From positions 96,001 to 160,000 of the forward strand of contig JBEGVH010000010.1 of assembly GCA_041178425.1 (NCBI GenBank): 64,000 nucleotides of DNA, read 5' to 3'. Made by a program: the position numbers and the translations under genes. Positions 10,266 through 62,161 of this stretch are shown here, piece after piece (the stretch's first letter is position 1; the number at the start of each line of letters is the position of its first letter). The notes beneath the pieces were generated by a model that searched no databases, was not told the DNA's origin, and was given only the letters and a program-made list of their open reading frames with translations. This DNA comes from Pseudomonadota bacterium (GTDB lineage Bacteria > Bdellovibrionota > Bdellovibrionia > Bdellovibrionales > Bdellovibrionaceae).

Positions 10266-10343
10266 AGACTTTTTACTAAAACGATCGATTAAAGATTCTT
10301 TATTTAGAAGCCGCACACAAATAAGTGCGGTTTCTATGCTTTT

Positions 10344-10359
10344 TGGCTTATTTATTGCT
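10344..10359 (+). promoter_or_regulatory. Putative sigma54 (-24/-12) promoter
   Basis: TGGCTTATTTATTGCT is TGGC-N7-TTGC (GG-N10-GC), upstream of SD AGGAGG and TTG 10394. Confidence 0.6.
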
Positions 10360-10393
10360 ACTTTCTCCTGCTCACAGTCCGCAGGAGGCCTAC

Positions 10394-12088
10394 TTGAGAA
10401 ACCTATTGGTTCTTTTATCTTTCTTCATTTTCACAGACGCACAGGCGTTTCTCTTCGATAACCAAGAAATCGACATCGACCACACCCGCGGCCCCTATGC
10501 CTGGAAAATCAAAAAAGATCACTGGGACATGTCTGACGAACTTGGCTATGGTCGCTTTGTAACAACTCTTGGTGAAGCTGTTGCTGCGGGCAAGTGCCGT
10601 AACGTCACCGATTGCATGAATTCAACCGCAAATATCTATCGCAGCTCCGATCCAAAAGACCTCATTTTTAAGGCTGATTGCGCTGACTGGACATACCTTC
10701 TGAGAGCTTACTACGCTTGGAAAAACAACCTGCCTTTTGCGGTCACAACAATGATTCCCCATCCGTCCAATCCCGAAAATATGACTGATCTTCGTTATAC
10801 ACCTTTTGGAAATATTGTAAGCGAACGAGTTGATCTGGTCTCGACATTTTGGGGATATCCAGACGCTCGCCAACTTTTTACAGAAATTATTCCAAGCCTC
10901 ATATCTACCGCAAATATTCGCACTCACCAGGACAACGTTGTCGAGAATCTGTGGAGCGACTTCTATCCCATTAGCATCAACTCAAAAAGTCTTCGCCCTG
11001 GCACAACTATTTATGATCCTTTCGGACATGTGGTTGTGGTTTATAGAATTTCGGAGGATGGTCACATTTACTATGTTGATGCTCACACAGACAATAATTT
11101 GACCGTTGGGGTTTTTAACGAGAAATTTGTCAGAACTCATCCCTTAATTGGAGGTGGTTTTAAGAATTGGCGCCCAATCAAACTTGTAGACTACAGCCGT
11201 GATAGCAGTGGGATTTTAAACGGTGGCAAGTTAGTGGCGCTTTCTAATTCTCAGATCAGTGACTTTTCAGAAGTTCAATATTTTGGAAGCAGACAACGCT
11301 CAAACCGAAACTGGAAATTAGCCCAATTTGCAGTAGAAGACAAAAACGTCACATTTTACGAGTATGTTCAAGCTCAGATGAGTTCGGGAGGACTGCATAT
11401 CAACCCCCTCAATGAACTCAAAGACCGTCTTGGGGAAATTTGCCAAACAATGCAGGCTCGCAGTCGGTCAGTAGAATCAGCGCGTGTAAATAAAATCTAC
11501 CTCGCTGAACACCCCGAGAAGCTTCCTTTTAACATCTACGTTGCCAGTGGTGAGTGGGAAACTTATAGCAGCCCCTCTCGAGACACCGTTCTTAGAATTT
11601 TGTATTCAACTCTTTTAGCACGAACTAAGACCTGGATCGAAATGTGGAAAAATCAAAGCAGTCACTTGGTCTATAACGGACAGAATTTAGTGGATGATTT
11701 GAAATCTAATTACATTGCAATTTCAAATCAATGTGTCATTACCTACTATAATAGCAGAGGTAGCAAGAAGAAACTTACTCTTGAGGATGCTCGATTGCGT
11801 TTGCCACAAATGTCTTTCGACGCCTACCATTGTCCTGAACTTCGTTGGGGTGCTACACAGGAAACTAGTGAAGGATCTACTTGCAGCACAAACGCCAATA
11901 AGAATCACTGGTACAAACAAGAGCAATACATCAGAAATCAGTTGGAAAGAAGGTTCGATATAAGAATGGACTATGATGCTGATGAACTCTCACGTTTACC
12001 TCCCGGGGTTGGCTCGCGCAACGTGCCCGAAACGGATATTTTAAAGTATCTGAACTCTTTGAATGAACCACTAGGTGAGCACCTCTAG
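10394..12088 (+). CDS. Secreted hypothetical protein with a possible papain-like/NlpC-P60 Cys-His-Asp site
   Basis: SD AGGAGG then TTG; signal peptide ending AQA; motifs ADCAD, DPFGHVVVV, YVDAH. Confidence 0.7.
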   Translation: MRNLLVLLSFFIFTDAQAFLFDNQEIDIDHTRGPYAWKIKKDHWDMSDELGYGRFVTTLGEAVAAGKCRNVTDCMNSTANIYRSSDPKDLIFKADCADWTYLLRAYYAWKNNLPFAVTTMIPHPSNPENMTDLRYTPFGNIVSERVDLVSTFWGYPDARQLFTEIIPSLISTANIRTHQDNVVENLWSDFYPISINSKSLRPGTTIYDPFGHVVVVYRISEDGHIYYVDAHTDNNLTVGVFNEKFVRTHPLIGGGFKNWRPIKLVDYSRDSSGILNGGKLVALSNSQISDFSEVQYFGSRQRSNRNWKLAQFAVEDKNVTFYEYVQAQMSSGGLHINPLNELKDRLGEICQTMQARSRSVESARVNKIYLAEHPEKLPFNIYVASGEWETYSSPSRDTVLRILYSTLLARTKTWIEMWKNQSSHLVYNGQNLVDDLKSNYIAISNQCVITYYNSRGSKKKLTLEDARLRLPQMSFDAYHCPELRWGATQETSEGSTCSTNANKNHWYKQEQYIRNQLERRFDIRMDYDADELSRLPPGVGSRNVPETDILKYLNSLNEPLGEHL

Positions 12089-12591
12089 GATAATCCCAAT
12101 ACCTTCGGACTCACTGCCCAAATAAGTTTAGCCGATTTGGCGTCGAAACTTTGACTAGTTTCGATTGCCAAGGCGCCACCTTTCTTTAGAGTTATTCGGC
12201 TCTCTCGAGAACCAAAAATAAGCCAACTTGCCAAAATGCTCAGTTGCGGCTCGTGCCCTACCAAGATAACTTTTTTTGCATTTTTAATAACATTACTCCT
12301 ATACCATCGAAGAAACTCCTCTGGTTTTCCATTCGGCATAAGTGCATCGCAAGAGAGTTGTCTTGTTTTTGGATAAAACCCCTTGAGAATTAAGGCCGTC
12401 TCTTGTGCCCTCAGAAAGGGTGAACAGATAATAAAATCTACAGCTCCAATCAGGTCCCTAATTTTTTTTGCCGATCTTCTGAATTTTTTCTTACCGTCTT
12501 TAGTGAGTGGCCGAAGGCTATCGTCGAGACTTTCTAATATAAAGGTTTTACGATCCTCTGCAATTGCATGTCGCACCAAAAATAGTTCCAC
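12085..12591 (-). CDS. sixA: Phosphohistidine phosphatase SixA family
   Basis: LFLVRHAIAE, RPLT, SPFLRAQETA, LVGHEP, LKKGG; SD GGAGGG before GTG 12591. Confidence 0.9.
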   Translation of the reverse strand: MELFLVRHAIAEDRKTFILESLDDSLRPLTKDGKKKFRRSAKKIRDLIGAVDFIICSPFLRAQETALILKGFYPKTRQLSCDALMPNGKPEEFLRWYRSNVIKNAKKVILVGHEPQLSILASWLIFGSRESRITLKKGGALAIETSQSFDAKSAKLIWAVSPKVLGLS

Positions 12592-12754
12592 GGTCCATCC
12601 CTCCATTAACAATTAACTTGTAAACTCATTGTGTTTGATTTGGCAAATGCGCATTGATTATTGTCTCAAATACAACCTCACTAGGCGTGACCATCAGAAT
12701 GCCCCTCCATAAAAGGCCTTGCGCATTTAAGGACGGCCAATCCATAATTGGTTC

Positions 12755-13768
12755 ATGTTAAGAAGTCTAAAAAAATTAAGTCAAATGATTGAAAAGGACC
12801 CTGATCTCCAAGCAATTATTAGATCAGAGGTTCTTTGTGAAATCCCTTATAAAGACCAGTTGTTTCCAATTCACGCCTTCACTCTCGGATCAGAGAACCC
12901 GAAACATCCTGTCTTATTTATCACGGGCGGAATCCACGGGCTTGAACGAATCGGCGTTCAGGTTGTTTGGAGCTTATTGAAAACCACGGTCGACCGGCTT
13001 CGCTGGGACCAATCTCTCAGAGACAACCTTAAAAATATCCGAATCGCTGCGATTCCATTAGTTAATCCAGTTGGCTTCGAACGAGCCTCAAGAAGCAACG
13101 GTAATGATGTTGATCTCATGAGAAATTCACCAATAACGGCGACGACTCGTGTTCCACCATTACTCGGAGGCCATCGCTGGAGCAAACAGCTACCGTGGCA
13201 TCGAGGGGAACCCGGAAAATTAGAATTAGAAAATCAGGCCCTCTATAACTATTTTTTTCAACAAGCTGGGCAAAGCTCTTGTGTTATTTCTGTCGACTTT
13301 CACTCCGGGTTTGGCATGAAAGATAGACTCTGGTTTCCGTATTCACACACCGTTGAACCTTTTGAGTTTCTGCCCGAGATGAATGCCCTAACTCACCTAT
13401 TCGAACAAACGTATCCATACCATATTTATCAAATTGAACCCCAGTCTCAGGGTTATCTAATGAGTGGTGATATGTGGGATTATATGCTCATTGAATTTAT
13501 GAAGTCGAACCCAAATCCCTATCTTCCGCTAACTCTCGAAATGGGATCTTGGACGTGGGTAAGAAAAAACCCTATACAAATGTTCTCGAGAGGCGGCTTT
13601 TTTAATCCTATCAAAGAGCACCGATTAAAGCGAACCTACCGCCGGCACAATCTTTTGTTTGAATTTCTGATGAGAACCTTACGCTCTAAAGAGGCATGGT
13701 TGTTACCCAATGAAAAAGCGCGTCTCTCACAACGACGCAAAGGTCTGGAACGCTGGTATGAAAAATAG
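12755..13768 (+). CDS. M14 zinc carboxypeptidase / succinylglutamate-desuccinylase-like (DUF2817-like) protein
   Basis: GGIHGLE (HxxE), VNPVG, RSNGNDVDLMRN, VDFHSG, LTLEMG. Confidence 0.85.
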   Translation: MLRSLKKLSQMIEKDPDLQAIIRSEVLCEIPYKDQLFPIHAFTLGSENPKHPVLFITGGIHGLERIGVQVVWSLLKTTVDRLRWDQSLRDNLKNIRIAAIPLVNPVGFERASRSNGNDVDLMRNSPITATTRVPPLLGGHRWSKQLPWHRGEPGKLELENQALYNYFFQQAGQSSCVISVDFHSGFGMKDRLWFPYSHTVEPFEFLPEMNALTHLFEQTYPYHIYQIEPQSQGYLMSGDMWDYMLIEFMKSNPNPYLPLTLEMGSWTWVRKNPIQMFSRGGFFNPIKEHRLKRTYRRHNLLFEFLMRTLRSKEAWLLPNEKARLSQRRKGLERWYEK

Positions 13769-14504
13769 ATTTGTTCTTATAAGAGGCTTGGCTCGCGGGA
13801 ATGCCCATTGGGCCGACTTCACAAATAACCTTATTTCAATTCATCCCAATTTAACCATCGAATTGCTGGAAATTCCTGGAAATGGCGATCGTAACAGAGA
13901 AGTGACTCCCATCGATGCCTCGCAAATTATTGAACATTTCCGACGGGACCTCAATTTAGCACAAAGCTGCTCACCGGTGCGACTGATTGGAATTTCATTA
14001 GGAGGTATGCTCGCCCTAAAGTGGGCAGAGCTCTATCCTCAAGATCTTGAATCTGTATTTGTTATCAACTCAAGCCTCCGACAGTTTTCTTCTCCCTTTG
14101 AACGTCTTTCTCCGGGCATCTATACTTTGCTACTAAAGGCTTTGCTTTCCGCAAACCCTAGAAAAAGGGAATCCTTGGTTCTCAAAATGATAGTGAATAA
14201 CCCGCAAATCAGAAAACAATATCTCAATCAATTCACCGAACTTTCGATTCAAAATCCAATAAGCCTCCAAAATTTTATTCGTCAGCTTCTCTTGGCTGCA
14301 TCTATCAATGTTTCTCTTTCACCCACTGTGCCCCTACGAGTTATCACTTCAAAAAAAGATAAGATGGTTCATTTTCGTAGCTCCCTAAAAATCGCACAAG
14401 CCTTCGCTGGAAAACTCCACATTCACCCAACAGCCGGTCATGACATCCCTTTGGACGACCCGGAATGGCTCGCCGAAATTCTCTTAGACGGGTACACCTG
14501 CTAA
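13758..14504 (+). CDS. Alpha/beta hydrolase (esterase/lipase-like)
   Basis: LIRGL oxyanion region, GISLGG nucleophile, KKD acid, AGHD His; overlaps the M14 gene. Confidence 0.88.
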   Translation: MKNRFVLIRGLARGNAHWADFTNNLISIHPNLTIELLEIPGNGDRNREVTPIDASQIIEHFRRDLNLAQSCSPVRLIGISLGGMLALKWAELYPQDLESVFVINSSLRQFSSPFERLSPGIYTLLLKALLSANPRKRESLVLKMIVNNPQIRKQYLNQFTELSIQNPISLQNFIRQLLLAASINVSLSPTVPLRVITSKKDKMVHFRSSLKIAQAFAGKLHIHPTAGHDIPLDDPEWLAEILLDGYTC

Positions 14505-15281
14505 CGAGGGCTTCCTTCTATATGAAGGCGATGACTTTATCTTCGCAGAAGGCGAGAGAATAAATTTTAAGCTCAAATCATCGACGATGGAGTCGCTCCC
14601 ATAAAAACCGAAAGATAGATCCTGGTTTTTAATACTCCTCAAAATAGAGTCCTCTTTGCACTTCGAACTAATGAGCGTTTTCCAAGAAGAAATTTGACGT
14701 CGATGGTGAAGATCGCTATTGGCGAGCATCGGCAACCCGCTTCGAAAGACCTCCTCAAATAGCTGCACTCCACTGGCGACCTCCCAGCAATCGATCCATT
14801 CGCTCAGCACGTTTCTGTCATTCCAGAGCTGGAGCGTTGGAATGTAAGAGGGATCTAGCGTGAAAACAGGATGAGCCGCCACGCTCACGGCTCCCTGCGA
14901 TTTAATGGCTTTCAGTATTTCTCTTATATCTAGATCAGGATCCACCCATTTTCTTACCCCTAGACCTAGAACATGAGCGGAACGCTGAGTTCTGAGCGCA
15001 TTCTTTGTGACTTCAATGCCTGGGATTACAAGCATTCGGTACTGCCGCCAAGCTCGAAAAGCCTCACGTTCAATCTCGGCGATATATTCGTCAAAACGTT
15101 CCTCAGTGAGGGTTCTCTCAAGCCAATGCGCAGCCTTTCCAAGAAAGGACTGTGTCTCACAAACATGATCGGTAATCGCAATAACCCTAAAACCTCGTTC
15201 ACCATAGAGATCAACAACTTCTGAGATTGAATGCCTACCATCACTCCAACGACTATGAATATGCAAATCAGAAAGTAGCAT
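14484..15281 (-). CDS. PHP-domain phosphoesterase
   Basis: DLHIHSRWSDG, AITDH, GIE, AAHP, NSDLH. Confidence 0.88.
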   Translation of the reverse strand: MLLSDLHIHSRWSDGRHSISEVVDLYGERGFRVIAITDHVCETQSFLGKAAHWLERTLTEERFDEYIAEIEREAFRAWRQYRMLVIPGIEVTKNALRTQRSAHVLGLGVRKWVDPDLDIREILKAIKSQGAVSVAAHPVFTLDPSYIPTLQLWNDRNVLSEWIDCWEVASGVQLFEEVFRSGLPMLANSDLHHRRQISSWKTLISSKCKEDSILRSIKNQDLSFGFYGSDSIVDDLSLKFILSPSAKIKSSPSYRRKPSLAGVPV

Positions 15282-15978
15282 TGGTTGCGCCCTCCCAATT
15301 TAAATTCAACCCGTTGCACCAGCTACGACAGTATTCCATTTCACTAGCAGTGTTCTTTATAAAAATTGGAGGGTGTATTTCGAGACTCGCACTCAACTCT
15401 TTCTGGTTACTTAATTTAAACAAGTGGGTCGGCAGAAAATCGTCATCGATATAGGCAACAGCCCTTGTCGGAGAGTATCTAATTCGGATTGGTTGAATAG
15501 GAATTCCCAGTTCATGGGCAATCTCAAAGCAGCCCCTGCGCCACACCTTCTCTTCTGATGCACTCGTTGTACCTGAGGGGAACAACACTATTTTTTTATT
15601 GGCCTCTTCGAGTTGTTTTTTTATCTCTTGCCGCACTGAACTTCTTGACTCTACAGAACTCCGTTTTACAAAAACCGTCTCGCCCTTCCTCGCGGCAGCA
15701 CCAAAAACCGGCCAATCGGCCACTTCGCTCTTCGAAACGAAAACACATTCGCCATGATGAGACAAGATGAGTGGGATATCGATATAACTAATGTGATTCG
15801 AAACGATGAGCACTGGTCCTTCGCAGATGGGAGCGCCAAATACTTTTACTCTAAACTTTAAAAGCTCGAGGACCTTGTTGGCCCAGGATAATCTTTGATT
15901 TGGTGGCACAATAGAATCATTCTTACGCTTGCGAAGATATTGATATGTTACTGTTAAAATCTGTAAAGCTGGCACCAT
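15268..15978 (-). CDS. Lysolipid O-acyltransferase (PlsC/OlsA family)
   Basis: SNHISYID (HX4D), FVSKSEVADWPVFG, LFPSGTTS. Confidence 0.88.
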   Translation of the reverse strand: MVPALQILTVTYQYLRKRKNDSIVPPNQRLSWANKVLELLKFRVKVFGAPICEGPVLIVSNHISYIDIPLILSHHGECVFVSKSEVADWPVFGAAARKGETVFVKRSSVESRSSVRQEIKKQLEEANKKIVLFPSGTTSASEEKVWRRGCFEIAHELGIPIQPIRIRYSPTRAVAYIDDDFLPTHLFKLSNQKELSASLEIHPPIFIKNTASEMEYCRSWCNGLNLNWEGATNATF

Positions 15979-16013
15979 GCGGATAGTCTGCCTTTTCTCA
16001 ACGCCATTGTATT

Positions 16014-16030
16014 GTTAGGTTTGTGTTAAG
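16014..16030 (-). promoter_or_regulatory. Tandem-hexamer box facing the acyltransferase-PHP operon
   Basis: Minus strand reads CTTAAC-ACAAA-CCTAAC (11-bp period). Confidence 0.55.
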
Positions 16031-16080
16031 GTGGTAGGTGGTGCGTTACTACTTTTTTTATTTACCGCAAAAGAAGTCAG

Positions 16081-16097
16081 CTTAACCAAAAACTAAC
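16081..16097 (+). promoter_or_regulatory. Tandem-hexamer box facing the arginase-olsB operon
   Basis: CTTAAC-CAAAA-ACTAAC; 14/17 identical to the opposite-strand box at 16014-16030. Confidence 0.55.
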
Positions 16098-16133
16098 ACG
16101 ACAAATATTTTTTTTTAATTGATGGTATCATCA

Positions 16134-17093
16134 ATGAAGTCACCACCGTGGTCATTCGTAGGACTAAGCACTGAACAGGGACAAGCCCGACCAGGGCTGA
16201 TTGATTCTCCCTTTATTGCTCTTAAGTTTCTCGATGAGCGTTTTAAGTTCAATCAAAAAATTAATATTGAAGATCGCAAGGTGAAAACGAGGATCCCTGA
16301 CGACGGCACTTTAGGCTTTATCAACTGGAGTTTTTATCATGATGCCCATCGGGCCATAAGGGATTTGCTCTTGCGGGGCAACCGAGTGGTTAACTGGGGA
16401 GGTGATCACAGCGTTGGAATGGCGACTGTTTCCGCCTTTTCTAATATTTATACCGATGGCTATATTCTCTGGATTGATGCCCATGCCGACTTAAATACAG
16501 CCGAATCGAGTCTAACCGGTAACTTTCACGGCATGCCGCTATCGATCCTGCTCGGTGTTGGCAATATTCCAAGCGATGAGGTTCGGCCCTACTGGAGCAT
16601 ACTTGATCCAAAGAAACTTATCTATTTTGGCCTGCGCGATGTAGACCCCTTCGAACGAGAAGTAATTGATTCACTTGGAATCACTTCATACTTTAGTAGC
16701 GAAATTAATTTCTCCTCCCTCGATTTTATTCTAAGTGAAATTTTGGAACAAATTGGCACCAATCCTCTCCATATTAGTTTTGATATCGACTCTATCGACC
16801 CCGAATTTGCCCCTAGCACAGGGGTGCCTGCAAGAGATGGTCTAAGTGACCTTCTTATCAATACTCTCGCAAAACACCTAGGCCGACTGACTCAATTGAA
16901 ATCGGTTGATGTCGTTGAGATAAATCCACGCCTTGGATCATTTATAGAGGTCATTAAGACTTATTCTATTGCGTATCATTTCTTAGACCAAATTCTTGAA
17001 TCAAATAAGGAGGGTTATTATGATTCAATACATTGCACAACTAAAAACAAATTACTCGTTTCGCCGTCGTGGAATACACCGTTTTGGCCCTAA
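16134..17093 (+). CDS. rocF: Arginase (ureohydrolase family)
   Basis: GGDHS, WIDAHADLNT, SLTGNFHGMP, SFDIDSIDP, PSTG, VEINP; exact start (16119-16134) uncertain. Confidence 0.9.
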   Translation: MKSPPWSFVGLSTEQGQARPGLIDSPFIALKFLDERFKFNQKINIEDRKVKTRIPDDGTLGFINWSFYHDAHRAIRDLLLRGNRVVNWGGDHSVGMATVSAFSNIYTDGYILWIDAHADLNTAESSLTGNFHGMPLSILLGVGNIPSDEVRPYWSILDPKKLIYFGLRDVDPFEREVIDSLGITSYFSSEINFSSLDFILSEILEQIGTNPLHISFDIDSIDPEFAPSTGVPARDGLSDLLINTLAKHLGRLTQLKSVDVVEINPRLGSFIEVIKTYSIAYHFLDQILESNKEGYYDSIHCTTKNKLLVSPSWNTPFWP

Positions 17094-17880
17094 ATTTTCA
17101 TTAAAATTTGAAGCGGGCCCCTACTTGGTCAAGACCGCTGAAACGAAGGCCGAACTCCTTCAGTGTTTGCGGTTACGCAATGAAGTTTTTAACCGCGAGT
17201 TTCGATCAGTGACTCACCTTGAGTATGATTTCGACGCTTTTGATTCGCATTGCGACCATATTATTATTCTTCATCAGCCGACACAAAAAGTGGTAGGAAC
17301 CTACCGCCTCAACTCAACGCTGTTTTCAAAGAAATTTTACACATTCACTGAATTTGAGATTAAACACTTTCGATCACTATCGGGCCCGGTTCTCGAGCTA
17401 GGAAGAGCTTGCATTCAAAAAGACCATCGAAGAGGAATCGTTATAAGCCTTCTATGGCGAGGGATTGCCGAATATATGAAGATCTCTAACTCAAAAACAC
17501 TGATTGGCTGTTCGAGTATTAAAATTTCAAATAGTCGAGAAGCCGCCCTCGTATATCAGTATTTATCTCATAAAGGTCATCTCGATTTTCGATACTGCGC
17601 TAAACCTAGAGCTAAATATGAAATGGATAGTTTTGCAGTTTGGTATGAGTACATGAAAGAGCATTACAGTGAGCGCCTCGAACAGGAAGCCGAAAGCTTA
17701 CTACCACCTCTTTTAAAATCATACCTCAAGTTTGGATCTAAAATAATAGCAGAGCCAGCTTTTGATGAAGATTTCGATTGCATCGATCTACTGACGGTTC
17801 TCGATAAGGATAACCTCCTTAAGACCTCCGGCAAAAAATTTGTCGGCAATGAGCAGCGCGGCCCCTACGTAGAAGGTTGA
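17020..17880 (+). CDS. olsB: GNAT-fold OlsB-like L-ornithine N-acyltransferase
   Basis: LRLRNEVF, DAFDSHCDH, VVGTYRL, LELGRACI, LLWRGI, GCSS, LPPLLKSYLKFG, PAFDEDFDCID; SD AAGGAGG. Confidence 0.82.
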   Translation: MIQYIAQLKTNYSFRRRGIHRFGPKFSLKFEAGPYLVKTAETKAELLQCLRLRNEVFNREFRSVTHLEYDFDAFDSHCDHIIILHQPTQKVVGTYRLNSTLFSKKFYTFTEFEIKHFRSLSGPVLELGRACIQKDHRRGIVISLLWRGIAEYMKISNSKTLIGCSSIKISNSREAALVYQYLSHKGHLDFRYCAKPRAKYEMDSFAVWYEYMKEHYSERLEQEAESLLPPLLKSYLKFGSKIIAEPAFDEDFDCIDLLTVLDKDNLLKTSGKKFVGNEQRGPYVEG

Positions 17881-60335: not shown

Positions 60336-61322
60336 TTGAGTGAAAAGAATTTTTCTAAAAATTTTGAAATAGAGAAAGCCGTCGAGGAACTAAAAAAAGG
60401 ATCTGTCGTTGCTATCCCTACCGAAACGGTCTACGGGCTTGCGGCCAAAATTTCAGATCTTGAAGCTATTCGAAAAATTTTCGCAACAAAAAACAGACCC
60501 TTTTTTGATCCTCTCATTGTTCATGTAGCCTCCATCGACCAGGCCAAATCTCTTGTTAAAGATTGGCCAAAGAGCGCACAAATTTTAGCAGAAGCATTTT
60601 GGCCAGGACCGCTCACTCTTGTGCTTCCCAAAGGTGATCTCATTAGCGATTTAATTACTTCTGGGCTCGAGACGGTCGCCGTCAGGCTGCCCAAACATCC
60701 CATGGCTCGAATGATCATTGAACGTCTCGGTGAACCTGTAGCTGCCCCGAGTGCAAATAAGTTTGGCCGAACGAGTCCCTCTCAGGCCCAGCACGTGCGC
60801 GATGAGTTCCAGAATGAGGTTCTCATTGTAGACGGAGGACCATGCGAAGTTGGAATTGAATCATCTATTCTAAAAGTTGTCGAGACGCCTAAAAAGACTG
60901 AACTCACTCTTCTAAGATCAGGCTCAATTTTGCCGGAACAAATTCTCAGTTCATTACAAATTCTCGGTAAAGAACTGATTTTTAATAAACCTGGAACGAA
61001 TATCGAAGCTCCTGGCCAGATCAAGCATCACTATATGCCCGGCATTCCCGTTATTTTTATTGAAGAGGAGACTTGGACCTCCCTCGGTACCATAGAGAAA
61101 ATCAATCACACTCTTGGAACTCAATTCAAACACCCCTGCCTATTACACTTGAGCAGCGCCCCCGATCAGGCAGCCCGCGAACTTTATGGTCAATTGAGGG
61201 CCTGTAGCCAGCCTCCGCACGACGTCATTCTTTTTGTACGAAAGAAATCCTATCAAGGAGAATATTGGGCGGCCCTTCTTGACCGTATGAATCGGGCCTC
61301 AACATACCATCTTTTGAATTAA
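60336..61322 (+). CDS. sua5: L-threonylcarbamoyladenylate synthase, Sua5 type
   Basis: PTETVYGL, KNRP..DPLIVH, FWPGPLT, AAPSAN, APGQIKHHY. Confidence 0.95.
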   Translation: MSEKNFSKNFEIEKAVEELKKGSVVAIPTETVYGLAAKISDLEAIRKIFATKNRPFFDPLIVHVASIDQAKSLVKDWPKSAQILAEAFWPGPLTLVLPKGDLISDLITSGLETVAVRLPKHPMARMIIERLGEPVAAPSANKFGRTSPSQAQHVRDEFQNEVLIVDGGPCEVGIESSILKVVETPKKTELTLLRSGSILPEQILSSLQILGKELIFNKPGTNIEAPGQIKHHYMPGIPVIFIEEETWTSLGTIEKINHTLGTQFKHPCLLHLSSAPDQAARELYGQLRACSQPPHDVILFVRKKSYQGEYWAALLDRMNRASTYHLLN

Positions 61323-61363: not shown

Positions 61364-62161
61364 ATGCTTTTAATGAGACTTTTTCGCGTTCTACACCTTG
61401 GTTCAATCGTAGCCCTCTTTTTATTGAAGGCTCTATTTATTCATTTATTTACAACTGACTCTCATCGTCGCCGCAAAAAATTTGCGATGAATGTTTCGCA
61501 GTCTTGTCAAAAAGCCCTGAAGTCACTCAATATTGACCTTGAGGTTACGAGCCCCCCCAATAATCACGGGCGCTATCTCATCGTTTGCAACCATCTCGGC
61601 TATTTGGATATCTTTGCTCTCGCGGCTTCTGTTCCGGCTCTTTTCGTCACATCTGTTGAAATGAAAGAGACCCCATTTTTAGGGCTTTTAACAGAAATGG
61701 CCGGCTGTATGTACGTTGAGCGTCGTAGTCGCATGAATATACACAATGAAATAAAAGAAATAGAAGAAGCCTTAAACGACGGATTCAATGTTATTCTTTT
61801 TCCGGAAGGCAAGTCTACGGATGGAGAAAAAGTTCTCCCTTTTAAAAAATCTCTCCTCATGGCCTGCGCAGGAAGCGACGCCAATATCATGCCCGCAGTC
61901 GTTAATTTTAAAATGATCAATGGCGAGCCCATGCAGCACAAATTTAGAGACTGGGTTTGTTGGTATGGCACCATGCCATTCATAACATCGATTTGGAATG
62001 CCTCGAAAATTTCACAAAGCCTTCTACGACTCGACTTTCTCGGAGAAGTTGTGGTTAACGGAGACTCCGATCACAGAGACGTTGCCCAACGGGCACAAAG
62101 CCAAGTGGAATCCAACTATATTGGGGTGCCCTACCCACCTGGAACAGGAAAGACTTACTAA
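61364..62161 (+). CDS. Lysolipid acyltransferase (PlsC/OlsA family)
   Basis: CNHLGYLD, LFPEGKSTDG, PFKKSL. Confidence 0.88.
   Translation: MLLMRLFRVLHLGSIVALFLLKALFIHLFTTDSHRRRKKFAMNVSQSCQKALKSLNIDLEVTSPPNNHGRYLIVCNHLGYLDIFALAASVPALFVTSVEMKETPFLGLLTEMAGCMYVERRSRMNIHNEIKEIEEALNDGFNVILFPEGKSTDGEKVLPFKKSLLMACAGSDANIMPAVVNFKMINGEPMQHKFRDWVCWYGTMPFITSIWNASKISQSLLRLDFLGEVVVNGDSDHRDVAQRAQSQVESNYIGVPYPPGTGKTY

Follow-up and report, generated by a model that had tools for sequence, protein, structure and literature searches.

A putative ornithine-lipid locus with a linked arginase and an associated hydrolase pair, likely under phosphate control, in a member of the Bdellovibrionaceae

The DNA analysed here, hereafter the window, is a stretch of 64,000 nucleotides (nt) from contig JBEGVH010000010.1 of a member of the Bdellovibrionaceae (assembly GCA_041178425.1), and it contains a group of genes that we interpret as a putative ornithine-lipid locus (coordinates count from the first letter of the window). 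An open reading frame (ORF) scan together with inspection of the sequence identified, on the minus strand, a gene encoding a PHP-family metallophosphoesterase of the TM0559 type (14484-15281, 265 amino acids (aa), PF02811), a candidate phospholipid phosphoesterase, which overlaps by 14 nt the gene of a PlsC/OlsA-family O-acyltransferase (15268-15978, 236 aa, PF01553). On the plus strand, an arginase gene (16119-17093, 324 aa, PF00491) overlaps by 74 nt the gene of an OlsB-like GNAT N-acyltransferase (17020-17880, 286 aa, PF13444), here called olsB, whose ATG at 17020 is preceded by an AAGGAGG ribosome-binding site. The two pairs diverge from a common intergenic region of 140 nt (15979-16118), which confirmed the arrangement of four genes in two overlapping pairs described in the first-pass annotation. 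However, the span of 14484-17880 given there was too narrow, as the conserved unit also takes in 12755-14504 and thus comprises six genes (12755-17880). The two further genes, both on the plus strand, encode an M14 zinc carboxypeptidase-like amidohydrolase (12755-13768, 337 aa, PF00246/DUF2817), a candidate N-acyl-ornithine (lyso-ornithine-lipid) hydrolase, and an alpha/beta serine hydrolase (13758-14504, about 248 aa), a candidate lipid esterase or transacylase. The ORF scan placed the start of the latter at 13710, and its probable ATG at 13758 overlaps the stop of the M14 gene by 11 nt. The top NCBIfam models for the O-acyltransferase, the arginase and the N-acyltransferase were OlsA, arginase and OlsB, respectively, each scoring under its own cut-off.

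The intergenic region carries the sequence TAAC-N7-TAAC once per strand, a Pho-box-like tandem repeat with an 11-bp period, at 16082-16097 (plus strand, facing arginase-olsB) and at 16014-16029 (minus strand, facing the acyltransferase-PHP pair). When a matrix built from 21 sites in the ols promoters of relatives, with the window excluded, was run over the 3.06-Mb source genome (G000 in our numbering of genomes; 100% complete by markers), the two window sites ranked first and second (23.8 and 23.7 bits) and the promoter of pstS third (21.1 bits), the operon of which includes pstC, phoU, phoB and phoR; the fourth-ranked site (20.2 bits) lies inside a gene. Thirty PF12849 loci were fetched, 17 of which matched the PstS of G000, and 9 of these 17 pstS-type promoters scored 13 bits or more where 0.17 would be expected. 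The pattern T[AG]AC-N7-T[AG]AC, which was picked after the data had been seen, matched 40 of the 92 regions upstream of ols genes, that of the window among them, as compared to 1.3 in base shuffles, and in 14 of the 1470 upstream regions of G000. Sorted by leading gene, the box was present before arginase in 10/13, acyltransferase in 8/13, olsB in 19/46, PHP in 3/10 and M14 in 0/10 regions, and in none of 12 further separate M14 loci; with a looser TAA[CT] pattern, two M14-led regions matched. A strict motif pattern was found in 1/92 ols upstream regions, which is chance level, and an E. coli-like TGTCA pattern in 7/92, mostly as a reverse reading of boxes in divergent regions; both were discarded, and a scan of sigma-70 promoters and terminators performed no better than chance. 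Since a matrix derived from relatives ranks the window sites first and second and the pstS promoter third, the locus is likely under Pho control, and we infer binding of PhoB. Weaker box-like sites were also seen in G000 before a putative outer-membrane beta-barrel gene (C18:190, plus strand, 17.1 bits) and in the divergent region of ppk (C7:13388, minus strand, 15.1 bits).

The N-acyltransferase is the only PF13444 match in the genome. The domain was found in 29/29 members of its family, for which the best E-value was 1e-40 with OlsB and 1e-8 with FeeM, and ornithine-specific OlsB models gave the best scores in the family (28 of 29 members, as compared to 4 of 29 for glycine GlsB). The O-acyltransferase of the locus carries an HX4D motif (NHISYID) and scored 90.9 bits with the OlsA model versus 77.6 with the PlsC-type model, whereas its orthologue in relative G001 scored 77.6 and 86 bits, respectively. 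A second OlsA-like gene (61364-62161, plus strand), located behind sua5 (60336-61322) and 45 kb from the locus, reached higher values with OlsA (105.8 bits, PlsC-type 83.4), so that the locus is not strictly self-contained, contrary to the first-pass annotation. In a tree made from olsB loci and three other G000 paralogues, the locus enzyme falls into a group of 18 short acyltransferases with support of 100, and the 61364-62161 protein groups with sua5-linked OlsA-like proteins of relatives (support 98); this tree contains sequences of relatives only. Relatives often have sua5-olsB-olsA where G000 has sua5 and the second OlsA-like gene, and a sua5-acyltransferase pair lacking olsB was seen in 6 of 8 fetched relatives. 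No Pho-type box was found upstream of 61364-62161. Either the locus acyltransferase or the paralogue, or both, are candidates for the O-acylation of lyso-ornithine lipid. Family matches, along with model scores that all stay below curated cut-offs, support the OlsB-like and OlsA-like pair proposed in the first-pass annotation. Relatives of the same genus have an extra gene of 247-277 aa between acyltransferase and PHP (L065:5228-5971, L068:2741-3538, L133; L numbers are our locus labels), which has no Pfam match and lies near PF13444/FeeM GNATs in an Atlas feature search (0.94), and is possibly a second N-acyltransferase.

The arginase has arginases as its closest solved structures (E 1e-39; agmatinase 1e-14) and is the sole arginase-type member among the four PF00491 genes of the genome, the other three scoring best as two agmatinases and HutG. 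With the residue numbers of human arginase, the equivalents of the Mn ligands H101, D124, H126, D128, D232 and D234 as well as of H141 and E277 are kept in the window protein and in 58/58 aligned relatives, and human N130, S137, N139, D183 and E186 correspond to N126, T133, N135, D176 and E179. Such alpha-amino and carboxylate residues separate arginase from agmatinase and HutG. N130, D183 and E186 bind the free alpha-amino acid end, and the equivalents of these three are kept in 35/35 olsB-linked arginases. The active site is thus intact apart from Val236 at the position of Thr246, presumably an active-site residue of arginase.

Gene content outside the locus bears on the idea, put forward in the first-pass annotation, that a dedicated arginase supplies the ornithine. 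None of argC, argB, argJ, rocD, argF and argG was found over cut-off in G000, whereas the same searches recovered argC, argB, argJ, argF and argG in the genome G041. AstB, ornithine cyclodeaminase and fold-I ornithine decarboxylase were not found in G000 either, the two PF02784 genes of which are SpeA and LysA. Because ArgB, ArgC, ArgJ, ArgF, ArgG, RocD, ornithine decarboxylase and cyclodeaminase were not found, arginase is, as judged from predicted genes, the sole recognised source of ornithine in G000 and OlsB its sole recognised user, in line with the role proposed for arginase. An Ast-type route to ornithine was also considered and rejected, as AstB was not found in 5/5 genomes searched.

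We followed the linkage of arginase and olsB in a phylum sample of 301 genomes, in which olsB was found in 186, arginase in 76, PHP in 111 and M14 in 179, and in 80 metagenome M14 loci. Both genes were present in 58 genomes of the sample, 55 of which could be located (48 from printed places and 7 from fetched loci; 3 were left out), and arginase lay within 6 kb of olsB in 26/55, the remaining 29 being unlinked. With 12 kb amounting to about 0.4% of a genome of this size, this grouping, like that of PHP with olsB (19/82), is far above chance; we give counts and do not rely on P values because kin are not independent. In 35 loci holding both genes, the order was arginase>olsB with overlap in 17, olsB>acyltransferase>arginase in 10, olsB>arginase in 5 and other in 3, and such loci occur in families f1, f3, f6, f21 and f27, so that the linkage recurs in relatives in three gene orders. 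On an arginase tree of 60 rows made by a quick method, the starred branches force at least three gains or losses of the linked state, and the linked arginases of G007 and G014 were placed among unlinked ones, which suggests that arginase was recruited to olsB more than once. Arginase was found in 3 of the 80 metagenome loci, and on the tree these three fall near the Bdellovibrionota clade. A plasmid search with OlsB gave 12 distant matches. An arginase-OlsB fusion was sought as well, and the single case among 3507 longer candidates was an unrelated fungal protein, which is weak evidence. Beside olsB or arginase, three relatives hold a gene for a cupin-like (the label is ours) plus pyridoxal-dependent decarboxylase protein (PF00282; L072:3928-5568, L089:511-2133, L115:3698-5104), and an M20-family deacylase gene lies immediately 5' of olsB in L108:7490-8683 and L112:7181-8377.

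The metal ligands of the PHP enzyme are invariant in 9/9 sequences, and among solved structures only that of the hypothetical protein TM0559 (PDB 2ANU, E 1e-65) is closely related to it. The 117 longer homologues are fusions, with MGDG-synthase domains in 76 cases, histidine kinases in 40 and a GT2 in 1; the histidine kinase fusions indicate that the family has other uses too. The enzyme fits a diacylglycerol-releasing phosphoesterase, and the fusions to diacylglycerol glycosyltransferases back, together with the Pho-box-like sites, the connection to phosphate made in the first-pass annotation. It has the PHP fold (PF02811) and not the calcineurin-like, LpxH-like fold of PlcP, but may still work like PlcP. 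In G047 the PHP gene precedes pstS and is near ppx and ppk. A SixA-like histidine phosphatase gene lies beside the six genes (12085-12612, minus strand), and in relatives (L107, L123) such a gene occurs with ppk, ppx and PHP.

The M14 protein shows the fold, the zinc ligands (HxxE...H) and the catalytic Glu of its clan, with H61, E64, H183, R113, R123/N124 and E262 invariant in 21/21 sequences, and its predicted structure (mean confidence, pLDDT, 86.8) matches carboxypeptidases T/A/B at a template modelling score of about 0.65; an obvious hydrophobic N-terminal segment was not seen in the protein. In the serine hydrolase, S96, D217 and H244 (counting residues from 13710) are the same in 14/14 sequences, and its closest solved relatives are the monoacylglycerol lipase ABHD6 and a lipase (E 2e-13). 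Of 61 close relatives, 46 have olsB and 44 have M14, the latter all being among the 46, and in the phylum sample M14 and olsB were both present in 155 genomes, M14 only in 24, olsB only in 31 and neither in 91. The M14/serine hydrolase pair tracks olsB better than arginase does. M14 and olsB lay within 6 kb of each other in 52 of the 110 genomes entered with both places.

The 80 metagenome M14 loci (guanine plus cytosine (GC) content 35-75%) contained the serine hydrolase in 67, olsB or olsF in 22 (17/43 in loci of 6 kb or more), an LpxH/PlcP-like gene in 11 and an MJ1255-type glycosyltransferase in 7. Five M14 loci hold OlsF-length synthases, and in L135 and L136 all six genes point in one direction as PHP>acyltransferase>arginase>olsB>M14>hydrolase. 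The M14 gene of a Methylomagnum plasmid has PhoX and a further alkaline phosphatase as neighbours, and three other plasmid loci have the M14/hydrolase pair with no olsB nearby. A scan of genome contigs with M14 gave only 2 loci, and apparent M14-hydrolase fusions in GC-rich loci turned out to be overlapping frames. M14 was also seen in genomes where olsB was not found (loci L308-L315 in G226, G108, G254, G188, G186, G130, G074 and G292), with the hydrolase in 6/8; these are candidates for salvage of prey aminolipids. A 587-aa protein encoded at 10325-12088 (plus strand) has no Pfam or NCBIfam match, and a fragment of a homologue is found near the locus in G001.

Taken together, we consider it fairly likely that the six genes at 12755-17880 form a membrane-remodelling locus that builds ornithine lipid under phosphate starvation and is fed by arginase; the lipid product and the substrate are what we infer from the genes. 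Close homologues bear names of Bacteriovorax and Bdellovibrionales, in keeping with a place in the Bdellovibrionota, from which the predatory lifestyle is presumed. PhoR/PhoB would very probably activate both divergent operons via the tandem boxes, and arginase would, with good probability, convert scavenged arginine to ornithine and urea. OlsB would then probably N-acylate ornithine with 3-hydroxyacyl-acyl carrier protein, and the short acyltransferase, the 61364 paralogue or both would O-acylate the product. More tentatively, PHP might release phosphate from phospholipids or from phosphatidic acid, a task like that of PlcP but carried out by a different fold, for which we hold the chances to be somewhat below even. 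Since the two bonds formed by OlsB and OlsA are an ester and an amide that has a free carboxylate as its neighbour, we read the serine hydrolase and M14 as a candidate breakdown route, a reading that falls a little short of an even chance; the serine hydrolase might cut the ester and M14 thereafter the amide, so that lyso-lipid is cleared and ornithine returned, a sequence of steps held equally tentatively. A complete build-and-recycle cycle of ornithine lipid in predatory Bdellovibrionota, with a specialised arginase subfamily that olsB recruited more than once, PHP standing in for PlcP, and the widespread M14/hydrolase pair as the missing degradation route that would also enable predators lacking both arginase and olsB to salvage ornithine and fatty acid from the lipids of their prey, seems doubtful.

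Several observations weigh against this interpretation. In the window the count of the box pattern is not by itself significant (2 matches; 6/100 shuffles reach 2), and only a minority of PHP-led units carry the box. Scores stayed below curated cut-offs for arginase (TIGR01229, 166.7 versus 227.6 bits, although this is still the best family), OlsB (105 bits versus 320-350, models that carry the names of Brucella and Rhodobacter proteins) and the locus acyltransferase with OlsA (cut-off 300). Arginase, as judged at E<=1e-55, is lacking in 128/186 olsB genomes and PHP in 96/186, which makes both of them optional parts of what the first-pass annotation had regarded as a self-contained module; moreover, PHP is unlinked to olsB in 63/82 genomes and lies within 6 kb in 19/82. 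In relatives G024 and G005 the de novo genes tested are likewise missing; arginase is entirely absent from G024 and unlinked to olsB in G005, so many OlsB enzymes must obtain ornithine otherwise or use another amino acid, for example lysine. The Thr246 position is V, L or I in 27/35 olsB-linked arginases as compared to T in 21/23 unlinked ones, and the substrate of the linked enzymes may therefore have shifted. M14 differs from the carboxypeptidases in having, by alignment, Trp at position 255, which we take to be that of the pocket Asp of the basic-residue carboxypeptidase B, and Asp at 253. Finally, M14 and the hydrolase often follow olsB immediately in a shared operon, an arrangement that fits poorly with a pair devoted to degradation only.

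The main rival of the breakdown reading is a biosynthetic pair in which M14, in the manner of the Shewanella N-acetyl-ornithine deacetylase, frees ornithine from short N-acyl-ornithine or from peptides, while the hydrolase resembles OlsI and transfers acyl chains from phospholipid to lyso-ornithine lipid as a transacylase. Such a role would account for the arginase-less genomes. The frequent olsB>M14>hydrolase operons speak for it, and OlsI is described in excerpts of its report as an O-acyltransferase of alpha/beta fold (PMC12493201). There are weak matches of M14 to the N-acetyl-ornithine deacetylase model NF052223 (21 bits) and of the hydrolase to OlsI NF052614 (19.9 bits; OlsI is matched by 7/14 members), but these are far under the cut-offs of 400 and 385, and the members more often match other hydrolase families. 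Moreover, none of ArgB, ArgC and ArgJ, which would provide acetyl-ornithine, was found in G000, all 8 such genomes that were fetched have an acyltransferase from the same Pfam family (behind sua5 in 6), the pair also accompanies OlsF-length synthases, M14 occurs in 24 genomes without olsB, and no box is found where the pair leads its own unit. We therefore regard the biosynthetic role as unlikely.

Alternatively, a different aminolipid, derived from lysine or arginine, could be made, with the arginase-like protein acting on a different guanidino compound, such as one that has first been acylated. The altered Thr246 position, the OlsB scores under the cut-offs and the many olsB genomes without arginase all agree with this, as do the presence of LysA in G000 and the fact, given in a review, that ornithine-lipid synthases also make lysine lipids (PMC12971839). 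On the other hand, the kept N130, D183 and E186 equivalents and the preference of the OlsB family for ornithine-specific over glycine models argue for ornithine. The replacement of Thr246 is mostly a trait of one clade, and arginases that keep Thr were likewise recruited to olsB (L025, L073). The linked arginases with V, L or I, which also have long tree branches, are a possible specialised subfamily, and we find the different aminolipid clearly improbable. Still less probable is that only olsB and the acyltransferase are functionally tied, and that arginase and PHP serve the phosphate regulon in general or catabolism and came to lie in a Pho island by drift. The patchiness of both, the unlinked arginases and the position of PHP beside pstS, ppx and ppk in G047 speak for it, but in three gene orders and in several families arginase is seen overlapping olsB or adjoining it, and no enzyme that would consume the ornithine (RocD, ArgF, cyclodeaminase, ornithine decarboxylase) was found.

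Ornithine lipids are thought to be within reach of about half of sequenced bacteria, and three pathways are described in the part of the review consulted (PMC12971839); OlsF proteins alone make them in E. coli (excerpts of PMC12186959). The locus resembles the OlsB/OlsA pathway of Sinorhizobium, Brucella, Rhodobacter, Pseudomonas and Acinetobacter in its PF13444 N-acyltransferase and PF01553 O-acyltransferase, and, as far as the excerpts go, in a Pho box before olsB in Acinetobacter (PMC11419095) and in PhoB control in S. meliloti (PMC12971839). It differs in having arginase coupled to olsB, two OlsA-like paralogues and added PHP, M14 and serine-hydrolase genes, in acyltransferases that score far under the curated models, and in a box that reads TAAC/TGAC on the sense strand and not CTGTCAT. 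With PlcP-Agt remodelling of phospholipids to glycolipids it shares a metallophosphoesterase tied to phosphate-starvation lipid genes, and PlcP/LpxH-like genes, PlcP being our label, flank 11 of the metagenome M14 loci; the predicted enzyme here, however, has the PHP fold of the TM0559 type. The serine hydrolase resembles OlsI of Singulisphaera in being an alpha/beta hydrolase fold in an ornithine-lipid gene cluster, but besides its low score it is paired with M14 and OlsB and not with the GH3-type OlsH. M14 shares fold, zinc ligands, carboxylate-binding Arg/Asn and catalytic Glu with carboxypeptidases T/A/B and the Shewanella N-acetyl-ornithine deacetylase of NF052223, and differs from them in its low identity to solved ones (14-19%) and its lipid-remodelling gene context.

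In the literature searched, which did not cover subscription journals, we found no report of an ols operon that contains an arginase, nor of such a role for M14, and nothing linking arginase, ornithine lipids and phosphate limitation, Bdellovibrio and a PhoB Pho box, DUF2817 and phosphate, or arginase Thr246 and the guanidinium group. In word searches of two recent reviews, one gave no match for arginase, carboxypeptidase, Bdellovibrio or degradation (PMC12971839) and the other none for degrad, catabol, arginase or peptidase (PMC11631085). Partial texts further report that lyso-aminolipids appear to be quickly degraded if not acylated (PMC6298996) and that a Ruegeria mutant in olsA shows down-regulation of an arginase (PMC9938194).

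In conclusion, the locus is probably a variant of the OlsBA pathway that is conserved and probably Pho-controlled, in which a dedicated arginase and a PHP are optional and a hydrolase pair is tightly associated. It is set apart by the arginase in the olsB locus, together with M14 and the hydrolase as candidates for enzymes of ornithine-lipid breakdown; because the chemistry is of known kinds, the gain is one of gene assignment and not a new type of system. The locus thus names candidate genes for two gaps, the supply of the head group and the breakdown of the lipid, provides a Pho-box-like motif for the Bdellovibrionota, and suggests candidate functions for TM0559-type PHP proteins and for the more than 5000 members of the DUF2817/M14 family.

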